Below, piece by piece: positions 15,881-46,569 of a DNA stretch of 64,000 nt; position 1 is the first letter of the stretch; every line of letters starts with the position of its first letter. The notes under the pieces were generated by a model. The model was not told where the DNA came from and made no database searches. It saw only the letters and a list, made by a program, of their open reading frames with translations. Position numbers and translations under genes: made by a program. Origin of the DNA: Dictyostelium discoideum (Eukaryota); NCBI GenBank assembly GCA_000004695.1, contig CM000151.3, positions 4,384,001-4,448,000 on the forward strand. The letters run 5' to 3'.

Positions 15881-15962
15881 GACATCGTAGCAAAGTGGTC
15901 TAATGCGTCTGACTAGAAATCAGATCCCTTCGGGGGCGCAGGTTCGAACCCTGCCGATGTCG
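15881..15962 (+). tRNA. tRNA-Ser (anticodon AGA), 82 nt, with long variable arm.
   Basis: The acceptor stem GACATCG/CGATGTC is a perfect 7 bp, followed by a discriminator G. Anticodon loop CTAGAAA carries anticodon AGA. A long variable arm CCCTTCGGGGG forms a hairpin. T-arm GCAGGTTCGAACCCTGC. The 3' half matches eukaryotic tRNA-Ser-AGA closely. Confidence 0.9.
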
Positions 15963-16711: not shown

Positions 16712-19700
16712 TTAATAATCTTCATCTTTTTCATTAATTTTTGAAGATTGACTATTAATTTTTTGATTTTGATACATATCAACAACTTGATCAGAACTAG
16801 TTGCATCTTCAGGAGATTTATCAGGACGAATTCTAATGAAACGTGGGAAACGTAAAGCGATACCTTTATTTGGATCCAAAATACCAGATGCAGCTGTATG
16901 AACTGGAGAGATTGATAAATCAGCGGCCAATACCTCCCAAACACAACTTGGAGAGAACCAAACATCAGGTTTAATTGAATCAGAGAAACGGAATTGATTA
17001 CGTGGTTGATTAATTAGATGAGGTTTCAATTGACTGGTAAAAGTAGTCAATTGTTCATCAGAGAAACCAGTACCAATCTTACAGAGTGTTTGGAATTCTT
17101 CATTGTTTTCATCATAACAAGCCAACAAGTAAGCACCATAAGTACCTGTTCTTTTACCTTTACCATACCATGCACCAATGGGTACCAAATCTAAACTATC
17201 GGTCATACCTTGCATATAATCTTTTTTAATCTTTAACCAATTGTAAGAACGACGTGATGGTTCATAGATTGATTTCTCTTTCAAAGTTTTCACCATTAAA
17301 CCTTCACAATTACCCTCGACAGCCTCTTCAAGATAGGATTGAATATCATTTACGTCGGAAATATTTGAATATTTAGCAAAAGCAAATACACCATCGGATG
17401 CAATGAAATTTTCAACTAAATGTTCACGACGTTTGATTAATGGTTCATCAATTAATGATTGACCATTCAAATAGAGTAAATCGAAAGCAAATACACAAAC
17501 TGGTACTTTAATTTGTGACAATTGTACACTTTTTCTTGCTCTAGTCGATAAAACTTGAAATGATAAAATCTTTTTTGTTGCAGCATCAAATGCAACTGCT
17601 TCACAATCTAAAATGAATGATTTCACATTTGGCCCAACGAATTTAGTAACATTTGCAACAATATCTGGATATTTTTGAGTGTAATCCTCTAAATTTCTGG
17701 TATAAATATGAGTGGTACCATCTGGTAAACGATGGATTTGAGCACGTTCACCATCATATTTGAATTCACAAGTAAACTCCATATCAGAGAAACGATCCAA
17801 CATTTGACTGATACCAGTGGTTGGTTGTGCTAACATTGGTTTCACTGGAATACCAACTTTCAATGAACATGTACTCAAAATATTATCAATACCATTCACA
17901 GCAATTAAATGAGGTACAAATAAATCATAATTTGGTAACTGACTATATGCACGAGTTACCTTTGATACAACATTTTGATAACGTTCTTCAAATTCCTCTT
18001 GTTTCATTTGTTTTCTAATATCAAATATCTGTTGACCGCTACCATCAATTGGTGGTGTTACCAATACGGATTTAGCCAATGCCATCAATACTGAACGTTC
18101 GGCTAGACCAATTCTAAGCTTACCTTGCAATGAACGAATGATATAAAGTGTTTCACAATCTTTACATGATACCAATAGTTTCTTTATAAGATCTTTCTTT
18201 TTTTGTTGGCCACCTGTGCCAGAGAGATCAGCAATTTGTTGAAATGTTTTGAACACCGATTGAATGGTCAATGGTGTTGGTTTACCCATTAGAGTTTGAG
18301 TGGATCTACTATTTTGTGCAATTATACCCAAATCACCAACCTCTGTCAACTCTTGTTTAATAACATCCACTGATCTACCAGTGGACTCTGCTAATGATTT
18401 AATTAAAACATGTTCACCAATACCCAACTCTTTAGATTGATAGGATGGACCAATCTTATTGATTGATAAATAAATTGTCATAACCAAATCCTTTGGTGAT
18501 AATAACATAATCGATCTAAATAAATTGGCTAAATGTTCAATAATAATTAATCTTGATGATGTTGATTCCATCATTTCAAAGGTTTTTGCTAATACCATAT
18601 ATGGTACAGCTTCACCTTTTTTCCATTGTGCATCCTCAATTGGTCTATATTTTCCAATAACCTTTAAATCAGCTTGAATAGTTTTTGCATTACCTTTCTT
18701 TTTTGAAATTGGTACTTTTTTAATAAATTTACTTTTAATTTGTGTACTTTTCTTTTCTTCTTCTTCTTCATTTTCACTAATTCCCTCTTCATCTTCTTCT
18801 TCTTCTTCTTCATATTCTTCCTCATCAATATCTTCTAATTTTTCATCATCATCTTCTTCTTCTTCCTCTTCTTCCTCATCATCTTCTTTTTCTTTTTCTT
18901 TTTCTTTTTCTTTTTCTTTTTTAACTTCTACTTTTGTTGCTTCAACTTGTTTTTTTGAAGTTATTACTTCTTTTTCTTCTTTTTTAGATGGACTTGAAAT
19001 TGATTTTGAAGAAATAGTTGTGGCGGTAGAGGTAGTAGTTGTGGTGGTGGTGGTTGTGGTGCTTTGCTTTGCTTCAAGTACAGGTGATGGTTTTTTTGTT
19101 GTTGCTGTTGGTTTATGATCAACTTTTTGTTTTTTATTAGTTTTACTGTTTTTAGATGTTGAGGTTGGTACTGACGATTTAGCTTCAGCATTTGCTCTTT
19201 TAAATAAATCTGAAATATCAATAGTTTCTTTTTTTGGTGAAGTTAATTCCTTTTCTTTTAATTCCTTTTCTTTTAATTCCTTTTCTTTTAATTCCTTTTC
19301 TTTTAATTCCTTTTCTTTTTTCTCTTTTTCTTCTTTTTCTTTCAATTCTTTTTCTTTTTTCTCTTTTTTCTCCTTTTCCTTTTCTTCCTTTTCTTTTTTC
19401 TCTTTTTCTTTTAACTCTTTTTCTTTTTTCTCTTTATCTTTGAGTTCTTTTTCTTTTTCTTTTAGCTCCTTTTCTTTTTTATCTTTTAATTCCTTTTCTT
19501 TTAATTCCTTTTCTTTTAATTCCTTTTCTTTTTTATCTTTTTCTTCTTTTTCTTTTTTTTCTTTTTCTTTCTTTTCTTTTTCCTTTGATTCTTTTTCTTT
19601 TAACTCTTTTTCTTTCTTTTCTTTTTCTTTTTTCTCTTTATCTTTTAAAACTTTTTCTTTATACTCTTTATCTTTTGAAGAAATTGAATCTTTTTCATTA

Positions 19701-20302
19701 TCACTATCATCATCGAGCATATCATCTAAATCATTATCATCAGTTTTATTTTCATCTTCTTCGTCTTCTTCATCGTCATCCATTTTCTTTCTTTTTAATC
19801 TTTTCAAATTATTTGATTGTTTTGAAGATTGTTTTTCAGGTTTTTTAGTTTCTTTATTTTCTATTGTTTTCTTTGAAGAAGATGATGATTTTGATTCTTT
19901 ATTTTCTTTAGTTTTTAATGATTGTTTTTTCTTTTTATTCTTTTCTTTTTCATTTTCATCTAATTCCATTTCTTCTTCACCATTTATATCTTCTTCAATT
20001 TCTTCATCTTGTTGTTGATATTCTTCTTCTTCTTCTTGTTCTTCTTCACCATCTTGTTCTTCTTGTTCTTCTTCTTCTTCTTCTTCCTTATTTTTTTTTG
20101 AACTCTTTCTCTTTGGTTTTGTTTCTTTTTTTTCTTTCTTTTCAACTTTTTCTTTAACCACTGCTTCTCTTTTCTTTTTAGGGGAAGTTTTAAGTTTATT
20201 TAATTCTTGTGCATTACTAATTTTCTTTTCTATATCTTCAATTTCTCCACCTTCTTTCTTTTGTAAGAAACTCCTATAATATATTATGTCAAATTAATTA
20301 AT

Positions 20303-34530: not shown

Positions 34531-35673
<1,143 letters not shown>

Positions 35674-35876: not shown

Positions 35877-37029
35877 TTAGTTTTTAATAATTGATATTTT
35901 TGAAAATGAGTTATGAATAATTGGTGTATAATTTCTGGAAATTGATAAAGTCTTTATCGAATGAGGTAATATTCGACCTAAAATACCAAGTGGTTGGTTA
36001 AAATCATTTCCAAAGATAAGGTTTTCAATTTCATCACCAAGTACACCAGGTAGTAATATTTGGTTGAAATCAGTACCAAATTTTAATTGTTTTAATAATT
36101 TAGGAAGGGATCTTAATTGTTGATTAAATTTTGCACCAAATGTAAGACTTGTTATTGAATCTGGTAAAGAGAAATCAATTATTGGTTGGTTGAACCAAGT
36201 TCCAAATGAAAGTGTTTGATGTTGTTAGATAAATGATTTTTTTGAATTTGTTAATTGAATTTTTCACTAAATGCTAGAGATGTAACACTTTTTGGAATTG
36301 AAGAGTTTAATAAACACATGTCGAAATCATTACCAAGTTTTAATGTTTTTACATTGGGTGGAATTGTTTCATTGTCTAATTTTTGATTAAAATAAAATCC
36401 AAATTCTAAATTTGTTACATTTGGGGGAATTATATTAAATAATGGTTGATTAATTTGATCACCCAATTTTAAAAATTCAACACTGTTGGGAATATCTCCT
36501 GGTTTTAAAATTTGGTTAAATTCATTTCCAAATTCCAATATTTTCAAAGAGGAAGGGAGTGAACCAGTTATTGGATTATTATATCCATGATTTAATGATA
36601 CACTTTCAACTGATTCTGGTATTACTCCTTTTTCCAATATATGATTGAAATCATATTCTGTAATATTTAATGTCTTACTATTATTTGGAATCACACCATG
36701 TGCAAGAGGTTGTTTTGAATTATAAATTAAAGTCCCTACTGAATGTGGAATATTACCAGGTTTTAACAGAGTATTTTCATTTTCAATATCAACCAACTCT
36801 AAACAAATAATATATTCTCTTTCTTTATATTCTAATAACTGTTCTCTTGTTAGTTTGACATATTTATTTTGTAGGTGATTTAATATTTCATTTCTTATAA
36901 CCATACATTGGAATATTTTCTTATAGAATAAATCATCACTTTTGGCAACATTCTTTTTTTCCTTACACTGAATTTGTAAAACTAATTGTAAACCAATATC
37001 ATTGTTCTCAATATTATCAATATTATCAA

Positions 37030-37107
<78 letters not shown>

Positions 37108-37447
37108 TATTATTAATATTTTTAAAATTATTATAGTTGTTAATATTATTATTATTAATAGTTATACAATGGTTGTTTTGATGTTGGGAATTATTTTTTA
37201 TATTTTTATTATAGTTATTATTGTTGATTATTGGTTGGTTTTTATTATTAATATTCCGATAATTAATATCACTATTATTATTTATAAAATTATTAATATT
37301 ATCATTGTTAATATTTATTTTCTGTTGAAATTCATTACTTTTTTTATTATCTTTATAATTAGGGTAAGTTTTATTGGTTTTTTCAGTGAAAAAATCTTTA
37401 ATAGTAATAAAAATAAACAAAAAATATAACAATAAAAGATAATCCAA
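35877..37447 (-). CDS. FNIP-repeat-containing protein. The C-terminal repeats are interrupted by an in-frame TAA and a frame change, so this may be a pseudogene or a sequence error.
   Basis: Repeated ~22-aa FNIP units occur across 36251..37447 (IP.SV..L.FG..FNQ.L.PG.IP: …IPNSVEFLKLGDQINQ…, …IPPNVTNLEFGFYFNQ…, …IPKSVTSLAFSEKFN). They continue in another frame down to a TAA at 35877 (…LSFGTWFNQPIIDFSLPDSITSLTFGAKFNQQL…ILLPGVLGDEIENLIFGNDFNQPLG…). An N-terminal hydrophobic segment and poly-Asn precede them. Confidence 0.6.
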
Positions 37448-37672: not shown

Positions 37673-38739
37673 TTAAAAAAATAATTTTTTTAATTTTGAA
37701 AGTAATCCATTATTTTGACTTTGATTTTCATTAGTTTCATTTAATTTTGAAAGTATTCTTAATTCTTGTTTTGATAAAGATTTTCCATTTAATAATGTTA
37801 TTGAAAAATCGTTATTACCATTATTATCTATAGATAATAAGTTGAATAAAAATCTGTAGAATAAAGTTTGATTTGGATTTAAATCTATAGCTTTTAATAT
37901 TAAATCTTTTTGAGATATATTTTTATTATTACCTAAAGTGATTAGTTCATTTGGTTTCATTATAATTGCAAGATTATAATAAGTTGAATCATAATTTGGT
38001 TCTAATTCTAATAATTTAATATATAAATCCTTTTTATTTACATTTTTACCACCAACTAAAATTGATTCATCAGGTTTTAAAGATACTGCTAAATTATAAT
38101 ATGCTTCAACATTATTATTATCCAATTCAATAGCTTTACAATATAATTGTTTTTTATTTAATTTTCTACCATCTAATAAAGTTATTATAATTTCACCTTG
38201 TTGTTGTTGTTGTTCTGATTTTTGTTGTTGTTGTTTTGATAATAATAAATTTGCTAAATTATTAAATGAATAAGAAGTACTCTTTAAATTTGGATTAACA
38301 TCAATTGATTTTAAATATAGTTCAATATCAGTCATTGTTTTACCATTTAATAAAGTTATAGAATTCTCAACTGATGTATCTAATTGTTCAGCTAAATTAA
38401 AATAAGAATTTGAAGTATTTGGTTGAAGATCAATCGATTTCAAATATAATTGTCTTCTATTCATTTTTGTACCATCCGATAGAGTAACCACTTCATTTGA
38501 ACTATTTAATTGATTTGCTAAATTATGATATGGTTTTGAAAATTTTGGATCAATTTCAATCGATTTCAAATATAATTGTTTTCTTGTCATAATTGTACCA
38601 TCTAATAATTTAATTGATTTCTCATTATTCAACAAATTACCTAAATTATTATACGCTATTGAATGATTTGGATTTAAATCAATTGATCTTAAATATAAAT
38701 CTTTTTTATTTAATTTTTCACCATTTAATAATTCAATTA

Positions 38740-38820
<81 letters not shown>

Positions 38821-39142
38821 CAATTAAATAAGCTAAATTATGATAAGAGTTTGAATTTGGTTCCATATCAATTGATTTTAATAATAATTTCTTTTTATTA
38901 AATTTTTCACCATTTTTTAATTCAACAACTTCGTTATCATCTAAACAAATTGATAAATTAAAATAGGTATTATGATCAACATTTAAATTTTCATTAATCT
39001 CTTTTAAATGTAAAGTTTTATTCTTTGCACTGTTATTATTTAAAATTTGATGAATTTTATTAACTTGTTGTGTATGATTTGTAAAAAAACATTTTTGTTG
39101 TTTAATTAAAAGTTTATTAATATTTTTAGTTATTTTAAACAT
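37673..39142 (-). CDS. TPR-like repeat protein, ~490 aa. Paralog of 28922..32227. Possible mitochondrial presequence.
   Basis: Likely ATG at 39142 (MFKITKNINKLLIKQQKCFFTNHTQQVNKIHQIL). It carries 8-9 copies of the same ~35-aa unit as the upstream paralog: VTLSDGTKMNRRQLYLKSIDLQPNTSNSYFNLAEQL, IKLLDGTIMTRKQLYLKSIEIDPKFSKPYHNLANQL, ITLLDGRKLNKKQLYCKAIELDNNNVEAYYNLAVSL. It also has poly-Asn/Gln inserts. Confidence 0.6.
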
Positions 39143-39292: not shown

Positions 39293-42200
39293 TTATTTAT
39301 ATCCATTACGGTTGTTCTTTTTATGACTATTACTACTATTATTATTATTATCAGAAAATGAACCTGGAACATATGAAAAACCACCAACTACTTGAATTTC
39401 TAAATCATCAGTTGAAGAATGAAATTGAGAGGTTGATTGATCACCAAAAAAATCATCACCAAAACCATATTTATCTACATTATTGTTTCTATTATTATTA
39501 TTATTATTTTTATTATGATTATTTACATTCTTATTACCATTGTTATTATTTTTATTATTGTTTTTATTTTTATTATTATTTTTATTATAATTATTATTAT
39601 TATGATTATTATTATTGTTGTTATTACCTGGTTTTGGTTTATTTTGTTGTGATTGTGAAAATGAGTGATAGGGTTGTGGTTGTTGTAATAACTCCTGTTC
39701 TAATTGTTGATCATGTTGTAAACTTAATTGTTGTAATTGTTGTTTGAAAAACTCTGGTTGTTGTTGGTAAAACTCTGGTGGTTTATAATGATTTGGTTGT
39801 TGTTGTTGTTGTTTTTGTTGTTGTTGTGGTTGTCGTTGTTGTTGTTGTTGATATAATTGTTGTTGGTGTTGTTGTTGTTGATAATAATTATTATTTGTTG
39901 GTTTTGATTGAATAGTTTGATATGGTTTGAATTCACAAAGATCTGAACATTTTTTTAAACATTTTAGACCTTTATCATTTAATTTTGAACAAGGTTCACA
40001 ACATCTATCAAAAGGATTTAATACTCTATAACAAGGAGTTTTAACAGAATGACCACAACGTGGATGAGTTTTATCGATATCAACCTCACAACGACAAATT
40101 TTACAACATTCCAATTGACAAAGATGACCACAATCCAATTGTTTTAAACAAGGTTTGTTACAATTGAAATTATGATTAGTTTGAAGTGGATGACATTTCT
40201 TTGAGCAAGTATGACCACAATCCAATAAAAAGGCACAAGGCTTACTACAACCACCATCTTTTGCATATTGAATGAAATCTTTTTCATCACGAATATGAGT
40301 GATACCTTTTCTATGATTTTCACAAACCAATGGTAAAGTTTTACCGACTTGATTATTTTCTTCAAGTTTTGGAAACATATTTTTCCAAATTCCAGCATCC
40401 TCTCTTGATCTTTCAAGTAATTCTCTATTACCAAAAATGAATAAACCTTCTCTCGCTCTTGAAAGCATAACATTGATACGATTTGTTAATGAAAGGAAAC
40501 CTGCGACATTTCTTTCATTATTTCTAACCGAAGAAATGATGATAATATCATTCTCTTCACCTTGATATTGATCTACAGTTCTAACTAAAATACGTTGTAG
40601 TGGGTGAGTTTGACCTTGAGGTGGGACATTTGAAGAATGTTTCATTTTTTCATTGATAGCATCATTTATCTCCAAGAGTTGACCAGCGTATGGAGCTAAA
40701 ATTGTAATTCTCTCTGGTTCATAATTTTGATCCAATAGATAATTTGCAAAGCTTGTGATTAACCTAGCCTCAAAAGCATTGGATTTACTATTGATATGTG
40801 GTTCTTGAGCACGGCTTTCCCTATTAGAATGATCAAAGAAATAGACATTATAAAGAACACCACGAACAATTGATCTATAACCATCGGCTGAATTAATTCT
40901 CTCTTTTTCAACAACACTACTATGATTTTGTAAATTTGGGTAAACTGGTACAACAAATTGTGAAATACTTGGTACCATTCTACGTTGAGTTGCCAATGTT
41001 GAACATCTACCTTTATTCTCTACAATACGTTCAAAGATTGAAATATTTAAATTGAATTTAGTTAACAAAGTATGATCAGTACAAATTGGTTTCAATTGTT
41101 TATGATCACCAATTAAAATACAATGTTGAATACTTGATGGTAAACAAGCAGTGATTTGACCCTCCAATGTCAATGCACATTCTTCAATAATCAAAACTTT
41201 AATCTTTAATGATTCAAACAATTGTTTCATTCTTGAAGCACCAGTGATAGTGGCAGAGATAACTTCAGCACCTTGCAAGAGTTCTCTTTGATCATCAGAG
41301 ACTGCTTTTTTAATATTTTGAGTTTGAATATGAAATTCTTCAAAAAGTTTCTCAATTAACTCTAAACATTTTTCAACTTTAATTTTACACCAATATCTAT
41401 AGAGTTTAATTTTTTCTTTTTCTCCAAGTGAGTTAATTTTCTTTATATTCTTTTTTCTTTCACCTCTCATTGGTACATCATTATATTCTAAAAATTTCAA
41501 ACAATTACCAATTTCATTGAAATATTTCTTTGGTTGATTTCTTTTATTCTTTGAGAAGGAGAAATCACCTTTACTTTCAAATGTTTTCATCTCTTTTTTT
41601 CTTTCCAATAGTTGATTTCTAAGAATATCCTTATCGATTTTATAATTGTTTTCATTATCGATATCAATTGAATCATTGATAAATATATCATCCTCTGATT
41701 GTTCTAATTCTTGATCCTCTGAAAATTTAATTACCCTTTTCTCTGGTCTTTTAAGTTTATAATTTGATTGATGAGATAATGCATTCTCGAAATGATTCTC
41801 TTCTTTCAATTCCTTTTTAATATTTTCAATTTCACCTCTAATTGGATTAATCCAAAGTTGGTATTGTTTCTCATGTTCAAATGCTGATTCATAATCTTCT
41901 TCATCATTGGTAACTAATTGTAAATCTTCAAATCCAAATGGTTCAACTAATCTTTTTAATGAATCTCTAAGTTGCATTGTGATTTCAGAGATCTTTCTAT
42001 AGCCTTCATGAGAAAGTCCACCATATTTAATTTTGGCTTTCATTGTGTAATCTTTTAATGCTGGATCTTTTGATCTTGTACCAACTCTAATAATATTCTT
42101 TGTAATTGGTAATAGACCACTTGTAAACTGATCCAAGGCATGATTGGTATGACTAAGCACTAGAATCGGACTAGCCTCTGATCTACCGAAATCCTCTTTC

Positions 42201-43899
42201 ATTTTGTTATGTATTATATGAAACAACTTTTTACCTATAAAAGACTTACCAGTACCTGGTGGACCTTGAATTAAACTTAACGATGAACCAAGTGTTTGTT
42301 CAAGCGCTACCATTTGTGAAGGATCTAATTGACCCAATTGAGTTGGAAAACCATCTTTTATTATATCAACTTGAGATGGATCATCACCTTTGTTTGAAAG
42401 TTCAATTTCATCATTGAATATCTTTTTAAAATCAAACACTGGATTATCCTTAATATATTGTGGTGGTGTCTCAGTCTCCTTTCTATTACAATAAACCAAT
42501 GTATCCTTGAATGGTAAATTATCCTCATCAATTCTTTGCAATGATAATAAAATATTTTCATAGGATATAAAAAAGGATGGTGATTCAATCATAACATAAA
42601 TATTATCAAAAAATTCCTTATTAAATTTTAAACCATTACTATTTGAATTGCCCAAATTTATATCGTTTACACTTGGCTGTTGATATGGTGATAAACCAAC
42701 CTTTTTATGACCACCTTTTTCTTCTCTCTCTGAAACAATCATAAAATGTACCGTTTGAAAATTATCACAACTTAATGCTACTAATGATCCATTTAATAAT
42801 TTTGGAAATGTTTCCCAATCAATATTATGATGATAATCAAATGTAAATTCATAACCAATTTTAAATCCTGATGTTGTTAAACCTTTTTAAAAAAAAAAAA
42901 AATTAATTATTTAATAATTTTTATTATTATATTTATATATATATTTACCTCTAACTCTAACATTTGTATATAAATTTGGACCAATTTCACCTTTATTAAA
43001 AGATTGTAAAGCAGTACGAAATGGATTAATAATATCTTCTCTAATTAAACGAAAATGAGTTTCTAAATATTCATATGGTGAACTATAACGACCTTTTTTA
43101 ATTTTATTTAATTTGTTTTCATCTAATCTTCTTTTTAATTCACCTGGTTCTGGTACGATTGATAATTTTTTATAACATTTTGGTGTATTTGATTCATCGA
43201 ATAGTTTCTTATATCTATCGAAAAATTGATTAATATAATTGATTTTTTTTTTTTGTTTTTCTTTTTCTTTTTCATTTTCTTCATCTTCTTGAACATGTTG
43301 ATTTTGATTATTATTGGTTGGTTTCTTTTTCTTTATAATATCATTAATATTATAGTTATTATAATTACTAATTAAACTTGTGAATGAGTTTTTTAAGGTA
43401 TCAACCAACTTAAATGTATATTCTACTGAATCAATATCGAATAAATCTGAAATCTTTTCAAATATTTTAACGGCCCTTTCAAACAATTGAATTGGATGAT
43501 CATATTTTGATTTAAAGTAATTCTGAAGATTTGAATTATGGGAAACTAATGCTGATTTCATAATTTTACCATAGAATTCCATTTGTAATGGGTGATCTAA
43601 TTTCTCCAATACTGACTTGTGTGAAAAGATCTCTATAATCCACTCAATGATTTGATTGGTTAAATTGGTCTTTGAAAAAATCATTGAAAATGATGTTTTG
43701 TTTTGTTCAATTCTTTCAATTAAAATTTTACTATTCTTTTTACTTGATTTTAATTCATCATATACACTCTTTAACCCAATAAAACCATCCATCATTCCTG
43801 GATCAAAATCATTTTTATAATTATTTTGGTAACTTGTTTCAGTATCTTCTTCAAAAGTATTGTTATTTCTATCCTTATTATTTCTATCTTTATTATTTC

Positions 43900-43939
<40 letters not shown>

Positions 43940-44420
43940 GTTATTGTTAATTGCTGGTTTATATACAAAACCACCCAAACTACTCATTTCATTATCATCG
44001 GAATTATTATTTGATTTTTTTTGTTGTTGTATTGATTTTATTGGTTTTTGTTGAAATATATATTGGTGTGATTGCTCTTTTAATTGAGAAAGGAGTTGAT
44101 TAAAATTTTTTTTATTTACACAACTAAATTTTAATTCTTCTATTAATAATTTTCTGCCATCAACCTTTTATTATTATTATTATTATTTTTTCAAAAGGAT
44201 ACCATAAACAAAAAAAAGAAAAAATAAAAAGTAAGTAGTGTGAATTTGATTTTGAATTGTTTTTTTTTTTTTTTATTTTATTTTATTTTTTTTTAAAATG
44301 AGGAATTACCTTTAAATCTCTAAATGTTGGAATCAATTCTGAATATCCAATTGCGTCTAACCAACTAGATACTTGTTCATTTTTCCAATCTGGTGCAGGT
44401 ATATTTTTATAATTATTCAT
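39293..44420 (-). CDS. SAM-domain + ZNFX1-like SF1 (Upf1-like) helicase + NFX1-type zinc-finger protein, ~1640 aa. Three exons: 44300..44420, 42949..44165, 39293..42882.
   Basis: Exon 1 is MNNYKNIPAPDWKNEQVSSWLDAIGYSELIPTFRDLK, ending at a GTAATT donor. Exon 2 begins VDGRKLLIEELKFSCVNKK... and completes a SAM fold (W..V..WL..IG....F....IDG..LL.L). Exon 3 carries Walker A LIQGPPGTGKSFIGKKLFHIIH, a DExx/helicase core (…VLIIEECALT…, …QYQGEENDIIIISSVRNN…), then a C-terminal cluster of NF-X1-type fingers (C..C...L.CGH.C...CH.G.C: CAFLLDCGHTCSKKCHPLQ…CLKQLDCGHLCQLEC…). The tail is Q/N-rich. All junctions are phase-consistent. Confidence 0.8.
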
Positions 44421-45084: not shown

Positions 45085-45744
45085 TTAAATTTTTTCTATT
45101 ATTTTTTTTTTATTTAAAATTGGTGATAATTCAGGATTTGAAGTATCTTCAGTGTTTGGAATATTATCAAATGAGTCTTCTTTTGGTTGATTACGAGAAG
45201 GTATACGATCATGAATTAAATGATTGAAAAAACCCAATATTTCATCTGCCAAAGAATCAGAGATACCTTCTGATGATGGTTCACGTACATGAATAACTAT
45301 ACCACCATCAGAAGCGCCACCAGTATTAACATCATTTGAGGAGAATGCAGGTGAAGAATTTTGTCTTTGTTTATCTTTTTCCTCTTTTTCTTTTCTTTCC
45401 TTCTCCTCCTTTTCTTTTCTTTCCTTCTCCTCCTTTTCTTTTCTTTCCTTCTCCTCCTTTTCTTGTTTCTCTTTTTCTTCTCTCTCTTGTTTCTCTTTTT
45501 GTTCTCTTGCTTCTCTTTCTTGTTTCTCTTTTTGATCTCTTGCATCTCTTTCAGCTTGATCTTTTTTAAATTTCTCCAATTCTTGTTCAAATTCTAAACG
45601 ACGTTGATGATCAATCTCTTGTTGACGTTTTAATTCCTCTTGTTGAAGTTTCAATTCTTCTTGTTGACGAGTTAATTGTTCTTGTAACCATTGTTGGTTT
45701 TGTTGAATTTGTAATTCCTCTTGTTGACGAGTTTCTTTTGGATT

Positions 45745-45776
<32 letters not shown>

Positions 45777-46569
45777 CTTGTAATTCTTGTAATCTTGCTT
45801 GTTCTTCTTGTAATTGCTGTAATGTTGGATGTTGTCTTGATGTTTGTTCTGGTGTTTGTGTTACAAATTCTTCATTATTTTGTTGTTGTTCTTGTTGTTG
45901 TCTTTGATGTTGGTGATGATGCTGTTGTTGTTGTCTTTGATTATCTTGTGGCGAACGATTACCACCTGCGCCTAGTGATAATGAAATTAAAAGTTTTTGC
46001 ATTTTTTCAGAATTTAAACCTAATGAATCAAATAATAAATCTTCCAAGGTTGTTGTTGTTGAACTCAACCCAATATTATCATTTGAAGTTGATTGAGTAC
46101 CTTTTATTTGTTTATTACTCACTTTAATATTGCTATCATTATTATTGTCACTATTTTTTTGTTGTTCTTTTTGTTGTTGTTTAAATTCTTCTAATAACTC
46201 TTGATTTTCAATTTGTTGATATCTAATAGCCTGTTCTTTTTCAATTTTATTAGCATCTTCAATTATTTTCTCTATTTTATCTAAATAACTATTTATTGGT
46301 GTTTCTAATATAAACTTTTTAAATGTATTGTACAATGATTCAATATCTTTATTAAATTCATCTCTTTCTTTTTCAACTAATTCTCTTTTTGAATTAAATT
46401 CTTGATCATTATTTTTTTTAAAATAGTTATCCTTTTGGGAAAAAAAAAAAAAAAAAAAAAAACAGATCGAGAAAAAGAAAAAAGGTGGTGTTAATACCAA
46501 AGAAATTTTTTTTTTTTTTAAAAAAAAGGGTGAAAATCGAAATCGAATTTTAGATTTAGACATACACAA
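45085..46569 (-). CDS. Hypothetical coiled-coil, Gln/Glu/Lys-rich protein. The true 5' end is uncertain.
   Basis: Long ORF. A non-repetitive N-region (…ELVEKERDEFNKDIESLYNTFKKFILETPINSYLDKIEKIIEDANKIEKEQAIRYQQIENQ…) is followed by poly-Q and an (EKERKEKEEK)n repeat encoded by 21-nt tandem units at ~45395-45470. The C-terminal region is non-repetitive (…DGGIVIHVREPSSEGISDSLADEILGFFNHLIHDRIPSRN…). Confidence 0.4.

Follow-up and report, generated by a model that had tools for sequence, protein, structure and literature searches.

A SAM-bearing ZNFX1-family helicase gene of Dictyostelium discoideum without the E3 ubiquitin-ligase modules

A stretch of 64,000 nucleotides (nt) of the Dictyostelium discoideum genome (assembly GCA_000004695.1, contig CM000151.3, positions 4,384,001 to 4,448,000; "the window," numbered here from its first letter) was analyzed for a minus-strand gene located between positions 39293 and 44420. 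We consider it rather probable that this gene encodes a SAM-bearing helicase of the ZNFX1 family that lacks the E3 ubiquitin-ligase modules and that would act as an RNA-dependent, self-associating protein in RNA surveillance or silencing. The predicted product of 1638 amino acids combines an N-terminal SAM domain, an ARM-like domain, the ZNFX1 domain, a Upf1-like helicase core, a short stalk of NFX1-type zinc fingers, and a low-complexity tail. Public dictyostelid genomes already contain annotated homologues in which SAM and ZNFX1 are combined in the same architecture. All features of the gene given below lie on the minus strand.

The helicase core was delineated by profile and structure searches. 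Residues 627 to 1262 (40424..42331) match the Pfam families AAA_11 (E = 3e-26) and AAA_12 (E = 8e-39), as well as human ZNFX1 and UPF1, marking this region as a Upf1-like superfamily 1 (SF1) core. When queried against solved structures, the protein finds human ZNFX1 (9q9z_A, E = 5e-127) as its best match, far ahead of UPF1 (1.5e-31), SMUBP-2, aquarius, and SEN1. The alignment to 9q9z_A falls into two blocks, residues 269 to 725 and 887 to 1393, on either side of a very long insertion 1C in the first RecA lobe (RecA1), where the AAA_11 match runs over residues 627 to 1043, i.e., 417 residues for 257 profile positions. An acidic run, EQSEDDIFINDSIDIDNE, was found in this insertion by direct reading of the sequence. 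Upstream of the core, the ZNFX1 domain (PF25396), which represents insertion 1B, is recognized at residues 435 to 506 (42692..42973, spanning intron 2) with 56.2 bits against a cutoff of 27 (E = 3.8e-15). In addition, an exhaustive HMMER search with the product of exon 3 returned 2207 proteins at E ≤ 1e-30, and all of the inspected ones are of the ZNFX1 type.

The catalytic motifs are largely preserved. The Walker A motif GPPGTGKS occupies residues 649 to 656 (42242-42265), where the family has GKT, and the Walker B motif LIIEECA occupies residues 1006 to 1012 (41174-41194), where the family consensus is EEAA; motif VI (SRAR) is encoded at 40451-40468. When aligned with 63 family members, the protein retains 151 of the 168 columns with at least 90% conservation; among the retained residues are the lysine of Walker A, the two glutamates of Walker B, motifs Ia, III, and V, and motif VI with its SRAR and the arginine therein. 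The protein can be assigned securely to the ZNFX1-family SF1 helicases. This agrees with a previous annotation made from the DNA alone without database searches (the sequence-only reading), which had recognized a Upf1-like SF1 core with Walker A GPPGTGKS and had placed the gene in the ZNFX1 lineage.

At the gene level, three exons join in frame into a 4917-nt coding sequence with a single terminal stop. Exon 1 (44310..44420; 111 nt, 37 codons) starts at the first ATG at 44420 and encodes the first half of the SAM domain. Exon 2 (42949..44164; 1216 nt) completes the SAM domain with its second half and goes on through a poly-N linker and the ARM-like domain into the first part of the ZNFX1 (1B) domain, while exon 3 (39293..42882; 3590 nt including the TAA stop) contributes the rest of the latter, the helicase core, the fingers, and the Q/N-rich tail. 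Both introns are of the GT..AG type. Intron 1 (44165..44309; 145 nt, GTAATT...AAAG, phase 0) is bordered by TTA AAG/GTAATT at 44310/44309 and AAAAG/GTT at 44165/44164. Intron 2 (42883..42948; 66 nt, GTAAAT...AAAG, phase 1) splits codon 443 and is bordered by AGA G/GTAAAT at 42949/42948 and AAAAG/GT TTA at 42883/42882. Reading through either intron leads immediately to stop codons. The GC content of exons 1, 2, and 3 is 0.29, 0.23, and 0.29, respectively, compared to 0.14 and 0.03 for introns 1 and 2 and 0.11 to 0.14 for the flanks, and the drop from 0.29 to 0.14 coincides precisely with the GT of intron 1.

Both splice junctions were compared to homologous proteins and genes. Eight GT..AG combinations leave the frame open across intron 1, and 44310/44164 is the only one that yields a SAM alignment without a gap at the junction. 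At this junction, between residues 37 and 38, the sequence FRDLK/VDGRKL aligns with FRENDITGQSL, FKEQEVNGVTL, and FAEQAIDGDVL from three dictyostelid SAM domains, and the Pfam SAM match (residues 11 to 44) bridges it. Exon 1 by itself matches the SAM domain of Cavenderia with 44% identity (44417-44316, tblastn/tblastx), and that of Heterostelium is matched as well. The second junction (442/444) is bridged by both the PF25396 match at residues 435 to 506 and the human ZNFX1 alignment (9q9z) at residues 269 to 725. Mapping of the homologous proteins to their loci revealed an intron in the corresponding codon of the 1B domain, the residue between F/R-K/R and a conserved L, in both Heterostelium album genes and in the Cavenderia fasciculata gene. 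As expected, the split codon lies outside both flanking exon matches in the Heterostelium gene encoding 1647 amino acids and in the Cavenderia gene. Intron 1 has no counterpart at its position in these three homologous dictyostelid genes. Intron 2 is therefore old and conserved, and intron 1 is specific to this lineage. Because the SAM and ZNFX1-domain matches cross the junctions and the position of intron 2 is conserved, both junctions are supported by homology, and the locus can be regarded as one real three-exon protein-coding gene.

The sequence-only reading had joined separate open reading frames (ORFs) in phase into a protein of about 1640 residues, close to the 1638 obtained here by splicing. 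Its junction 42949/42882 is exact. For the other junction, given as 44300/44165, the acceptor (44165/44164) stands and the donor has to be moved by 10 nt, to 44310/44309. The introns it described as missed are so in the ORF list only; homologous genes are already annotated as spliced in public assemblies. No exact record of the joined protein, of a variant starting at Met97, or of the exon-3 ORF was present in a collection of 15 billion proteins.

The SAM domain covers residues 8 to 67 (44075..44399, interrupted by intron 1). The isolated N terminus scores 27.6 bits against Pfam SAM_2 (cutoff, 20.5) and 27.5 bits against SAM_1 (cutoff, 23). Within the full-length protein, SAM_2 passes with 21.0 bits and SAM_1 just fails with 22.2 bits. 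We regard the domain as genuine, as had been proposed from the micro-exon 1 and the beginning of exon 2. A profile built from four dictyostelid SAM domains was compared to the PDB and matched liprin-beta1 (9e-17), SARM1 (1e-10), SHANK3 (4e-10), and SAMHD1 (3e-6), in addition to the SAM domains of CNK2, DGK-delta, Scm/Ph, and tankyrase. The nearest solved SAM domains are oligomerizing ones, which gives an indirect hint, and only that, at homo-oligomerization. SARM1 and SAMHD1, two SAM-bearing enzymes of innate immunity, likewise have a SAM joined to a catalytic domain; their catalytic domains are unrelated to the one described here, and the likeness is one of architecture only.

With the same four-sequence profile, whose sensitivity is shown by its matches to diverse SAM domains in the PDB, a SAM domain was found in only 3 of 303 collected family members, all of them dictyostelid, and none is listed when the 56 next-best cluster representatives are scanned with Pfam. 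Because the domain is common to all full-length dictyostelid homologues found and absent from the roughly 300 other members, the SAM-ZNFX1 fusion is a Dictyostelia-level feature as far as sampled, and not one of this gene alone. The sequence-only reading had raised lineage specificity of the fusion as a question to be checked; the SAM domain is not peculiar to this gene.

Further downstream, an ARM-like domain of eight helices was identified at approximately residues 159 to 279 (43439..43801). An AlphaFold2 model of residues 140 to 442 contains these eight helices with a predicted local distance difference test score of 80 to 91 in this region. The top Foldseek match in the PDB is the ARM domain of human ZNFX1 (9eve_A; probability, 1.00; template-modeling score, 0.56; root mean square deviation, 3.7 Å), and the next structures matched are generic helical repeats.

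The helicase core is followed by a stalk of NFX1-type fingers at approximately residues 1290 to 1430 (39920..40342). It comprises three CGH-type fingers, at residues 1331, 1360, and 1385, and a degenerate fourth with the substitutions H1415L and C1429P at conserved ligand columns. The Cys-rich region aligns with residues 1257 to 1393 of a bird ZNFX1 (BLASTP; 39% identity, E = 1e-22). In cryo-electron microscopy structures of ZNFX1, the proximal fingers are part of a rigid finger stalk (10.1101/2025.10.14.682297, 10.1101/2025.09.05.674436). The Pfam family zf-NF-X1 (PF01422) does not match the Cys-rich region even at E ≤ 10. Taken formally, this outcome goes against the finding by the refutation criterion of the sequence-only reading. 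As a control, the profile was compared to two batches of family members: none of the 27 in one batch matched it, and the 25 families listed for the second batch, of 29, do not include it. The precomputed Pfam lists for named vertebrate ZNFX1 proteins do not contain it either. Since the family controls fail to match PF01422 too, its silence is uninformative, and it was rejected as evidence against the fingers in view of the 39% identity to the ZNFX1 stalk. The NF-X1 finger array announced by the sequence-only reading is real by homology, but it amounts to three fingers and a degenerate fourth, with zf-NF-X1 silent.

Homology to the family ends at about residue 1430. The remainder is a Q/N-rich low-complexity tail (residues 1438 to 1638; 39296..39898) in which 50 N and 42 Q account for 46% of the 201 residues. 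In the homologues and vertebrate ZNFX1, the sequence goes on to a much larger number of fingers, an F.QLDC.H.FE...CP.C motif that is conserved, and an RZ finger. This motif, which can be seen in the homologues as well as in the family consensus, corresponds to the Z-RING/Miz region. In the protein described here, the RZ finger (PF20173) gave no match at E ≤ 1, compared to 6e-19 to 5e-21 in the dictyostelid homologues. A tblastn search of the homologues against the whole 64-kb window matched nothing beyond position 39893, and their C termini, which carry the Miz/Z-RING and RZ modules, had no match in the window. Frameshifted Miz or RZ remnants in the tail and the 3' flank were also considered and rejected, as a permissive all-frame search returned only opposite-strand low-complexity noise. 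The protein thus lacks both E3 ubiquitin-ligase modules, and with the Miz/Z-RING and the RZ finger absent, no E3 ligase activity is predicted for it. In human ZNFX1, the Z-RING/Miz region is the E2-binding site, and the RZ finger holds the catalytic Cys1860 (10.1101/2025.10.14.682297, 10.1101/2025.09.05.674436). The absence of the distal fingers, the Miz/Z-RING, and the RZ finger, all present in the homologues and in human ZNFX1, is the main peculiarity of the gene and had been overlooked in the sequence-only reading.

The nearest proteins are dictyostelid: EFA77791.1 (1647 amino acids) and the adjoining EFA77792.1 (1851 amino acids) of Heterostelium album and EGG25206.1 (1864 amino acids) of Cavenderia fasciculata, which NCBI names "NF-X1-type zinc finger-containing protein." Each of these three full-length homologues contains SAM_1, ZNFX1, and AAA_11/12 matches, a long array of fingers, and an RZ-type finger at the C terminus. 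They share with the protein described here the order of SAM, ZNFX1 domain, helicase, and fingers, SAM domains that align, and the 1B-domain intron at the same split codon, although they are only 35 to 38% identical to it over conserved columns. Unlike it, they carry at least about eight fingers as well as a Miz-like C.H...CP.C motif together with the RZ finger (PF20173), and their SAM domains match Pfam over a longer stretch, in the case of Cavenderia over the full model. Further dictyostelid relatives are N-terminally short models from Acytostelium, Synstelium, and one more assembly. A homology search with a cleaned query returned relatives at 39% identity or less only. In a neighbor-joining tree of 1078 well-aligned columns, the protein joins the dictyostelid clade on a long basal branch. 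The two Heterostelium genes lie next to each other on the same strand (GL290991.1, 3873-15362) and encode proteins that are 54% identical, a tandem duplication; the 1851-amino-acid copy has a CCCH-type zinc-finger motif, CFHFIKQGSCKKGDKCDFSH, upstream of its SAM domain.

Human ZNFX1 (9q9z, 9eve) shares with the D. discoideum protein the ARM-like domain, the 1B domain, the SF1 core with its very long 1C insertion, the deviant two-glutamate Walker B motif, and the proximal NFX1-type finger stalk. It differs in having no SAM domain, in reading EEAA instead of EECA at Walker B, and in carrying distal fingers, the Miz/Z-RING (1533-1631), and the RZ finger (Cys1860), in place of which the D. discoideum protein ends in its Q/N-rich tail. 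Caenorhabditis elegans ZNFX-1 and Schizosaccharomyces pombe Hrr1 belong to the same helicase family, and both, like the protein described here, are without the RZ finger; no SAM domain is reported for either. Family members without E3 modules are not unprecedented, and such members can work, because C. elegans ZNFX-1 lacks the RZ finger and Hrr1, a part of the RDRC complex, to our knowledge lacks the whole finger/E3 region. For ZNFX-1, the missing RZ finger (10.1101/2025.10.14.682297, 10.1101/2025.09.05.674436) and the retained Miz domain (10.1101/2025.10.14.682297) have been described. Members of the ZNFX-1/Hrr1 type work with RNA-dependent RNA polymerases in small-RNA silencing (PMC9276528). 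In the 64-kb window, no RNA-dependent RNA polymerase or Argonaute neighbor was found, eukaryotic gene order being uninformative in this respect.

Three observations concern the family more widely. RZ-type fingers (PF20173) are also present in the dictyostelid ZNFX1 homologues and in a fungal one (Aspergillus fumigatus). The RZ domain of ZNFX1 has been traced to unicellular eukaryotes, with choanoflagellates as an example (10.1101/2025.10.14.682297), and the dictyostelid and Aspergillus hits suggest an older, Amorphea-wide origin. When queried with the second RecA lobe (RecA2) and the fingers, ENA metagenome contigs yield very many ZNFX1-like helicases of approximately 810 to 880 amino acids with 33 to 36% identity, and PF25396 does not appear in their precomputed lists. 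Finally, one family member of the first batch matches the cold-shock domain (CSD), and one relative carries the source label "cold shock CspA family protein."

By analogy with human ZNFX1, single-stranded RNA would bind within the cleft separating the two RecA lobes, with RNA-dependent ATP hydrolysis and 5'-to-3' translocation, and the acidic segment of insertion 1C may act as an auto-inhibitory plug. The protein would self-associate by ARM-ARM dimerization. The human protein has an RNA-stimulated ATPase, translocates 5' to 3' on single-stranded RNA, and dimerizes through its ARM domain, and it is subject to a circuit of ubiquitin-driven aggregation and turnover (10.1101/2025.10.14.682297, 10.1101/2025.09.05.674436). 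This ubiquitin-chain-driven aggregation and turnover could not operate in the D. discoideum protein, because the E3 modules are missing, and clustering on RNA would need the ARM domain, the SAM domain, and perhaps the Q/N tail. Judged from SAM biology in general, the SAM domain may add a second contact, either homotypic or heterotypic and partner recruiting. In line with ZNFX-1 and Hrr1, the protein would probably take part in RNA surveillance in the cytoplasm or in the silencing of foreign or repetitive RNA by small RNAs. A more specific version, which we put forward as speculative and improbable as it stands, is a separation-of-function ZNFX1: an E3-less protein that still binds RNA, dimerizes via its ARM domain, and has the proximal finger stalk, but that clusters on target RNA via its lineage-specific SAM domain and prion-like Q/N tail rather than via lysine-63-linked ubiquitin chains and silences retrotransposon or foreign RNA together with the Dictyostelium RNA-dependent RNA polymerase and Argonaute proteins. 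The ideas of a signaling scaffold and of an immune component, both raised by the sequence-only reading, are conjecture.

Several points weigh against this reading of the gene as an E3-less RNA helicase. All of its functions are assigned by analogy. Substitutions cluster beside Walker B (A1011C, E1013L, V1014T, and H1018Q), giving EECALTLEGQ where the family consensus is EEAAEVLE.H; the alanine after both Walker B glutamates is invariant in the 63 aligned family members and is a cysteine here. Because these changes are located next to Walker B, the ATPase could be altered. Of the SAM domain, the Pfam match takes in the first half only (profile positions 2 to 36), and compared to the SAM domains of the homologues, six residues are deleted in the helix 3/4 region, the mid-loop polymerization surface. 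The ARM match to 9eve_A, although the top one, has an E value of only 6.8e-3. The branch of the protein is long, with 35 to 41% identity to the dictyostelid members versus 44 to 65% among those. In addition, the organism's own proteins and group 4 relatives were absent from all protein-search matches.

Some of these features also fit the main rival explanation, which we consider possible but unlikely: the gene would be a truncated and diverged paralogue on which constraint is relaxed or has changed, while a full-length SAM-ZNFX1-Miz-RZ gene elsewhere does the ancestral job, and the copy would be either decaying or an E3-less regulator that, for example, co-assembles with the full-length protein via the ARM and SAM domains. 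The long basal branch within the dictyostelid clade and the much lower identity would follow from this, as would the loss of the C-terminal third, the degenerate fourth finger, the Walker B-flanking substitutions, and the deletion in the second half of the SAM domain. Gene duplication does occur in these organisms, as the adjacent Heterostelium pair illustrates, and no synteny of the flanks with the loci of Heterostelium or Cavenderia was detected, the gene itself being the only match in the comparison. However, the 4.9-kb frame is uninterrupted, 90% of the family-conserved columns and all catalytic residues are intact, and the intron position is conserved. For Cavenderia, Acytostelium, and Synstelium, the best 150 representatives contain only one homologue per species, and long branches are expected for fast-evolving defense genes as well.

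Two other explanations concern the N terminus. The 5' end of the model would be wrong if exon 1 did not belong to the gene and translation started at Met97 (MSSLGG...) in exon 2, yielding a protein without a SAM domain. The SAM_1 score just under its cutoff in the full-length context and the lack of intron 1 in the homologues are consistent with such a start. Yet exon 2 has 59 open codons ahead of Met97, which code for the second SAM half, the SAM alignment is ungapped at the junction, exon 1 matches the SAM of the homologues in translated searches, and the GC content drops exactly at the GT, so that we regard the shorter protein as scarcely credible. RNA-binding SAM domains, on the other hand, are established for Smaug and Vts1, and a SAM of this type could load the helicase onto structured RNA instead of serving as an oligomerization or scaffold module. 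Its position on an RNA helicase would suit this role, and polymerization is doubtful here given the deletion in the mid-loop region. The dictyostelid SAM profile, however, matches protein-interaction SAM domains, and none of its 60 PDB matches is a Smaug/Vts1-type RNA-binding chain, which makes an RNA-binding SAM very unlikely in our view. We favor the SAM-bearing, E3-less ZNFX1-family helicase.

The surrounding region is extremely AT rich, and poly-N and poly-Q are abundant; together with the DNA ligase I, actin, FNIP-repeat, and TPR-repeat genes of the window, this marks a Dictyostelium-type amoebozoan genome. Approximately 150 nt downstream of the stop codon of the helicase gene lies the ATG of a TPR-repeat gene (37673-39142, minus strand; 489 amino acids), which has TPR_17-type repeats (E = 8.5e-34) and a 26-residue poly-N insertion, followed by a gene for an FNIP-repeat protein (36251-37447, minus strand; E = 1.5e-36). 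A look-up of the TPR-repeat neighbor returned nothing. The upstream neighbor (45085-46569, minus strand) encodes a protein rich in Q, E, and K that has KEKEEKERKE-type repeats and is probably a coiled coil, whose C-terminal 305 amino acids, counted from the second ATG, have no Pfam match. An intronless actin gene (34543-35673, plus strand; 376 amino acids) belongs to a multicopy family, as the identical protein is encoded on 12 contigs of GCA_054859205.1 and GCA_054883475.1, at several loci in each. Six returned actin loci, which are paralogous or from other species, four compared by DNA and two by gene lists, share no match with the window beyond the actin gene. The sole tRNA gene found in the window by ARAGORN encodes tRNA-Ser (anticodon AGA; 15881-15962, plus strand). 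An ORF of 1149 amino acids (16712-20161, minus strand) was considered as a paralogue of the helicase and rejected, as its product is of the DNA ligase I type and has a long N-terminal extension rich in acidic residues and lysine; its length equals that of the exon-3 ORF by coincidence.

No relevant publication on a Dictyostelium or amoebozoan ZNFX1, or on the SAM fusion, came up in the literature searches. The combination of a SAM domain, missing Miz and RZ modules, and a Q/N tail is without description in the literature searched, while the protein is still a variant of a known family. With function assigned by analogy and homologous genes already annotated, the finding is a useful lead rather than a discovery. 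ZNFX1 was recently shown to unite an RNA helicase that is auto-inhibited and two ubiquitin-ligase domains in one protein, the loss of which leads to severe human immunodeficiency; this raises the question of how helicase and ligase share the work. In a genetically tractable amoeba, an E3-less, SAM-bearing member would make it possible to study helicase and assembly in isolation, and sister species with full-length versions that carry both SAM and RZ offer a direct comparison. RZ-bearing ZNFX1 proteins in dictyostelids and Aspergillus extend the published tracing of this module to unicellular eukaryotes. Dictyostelids could also show whether the role of this family in RNA silencing or defense predates animals and fungi.

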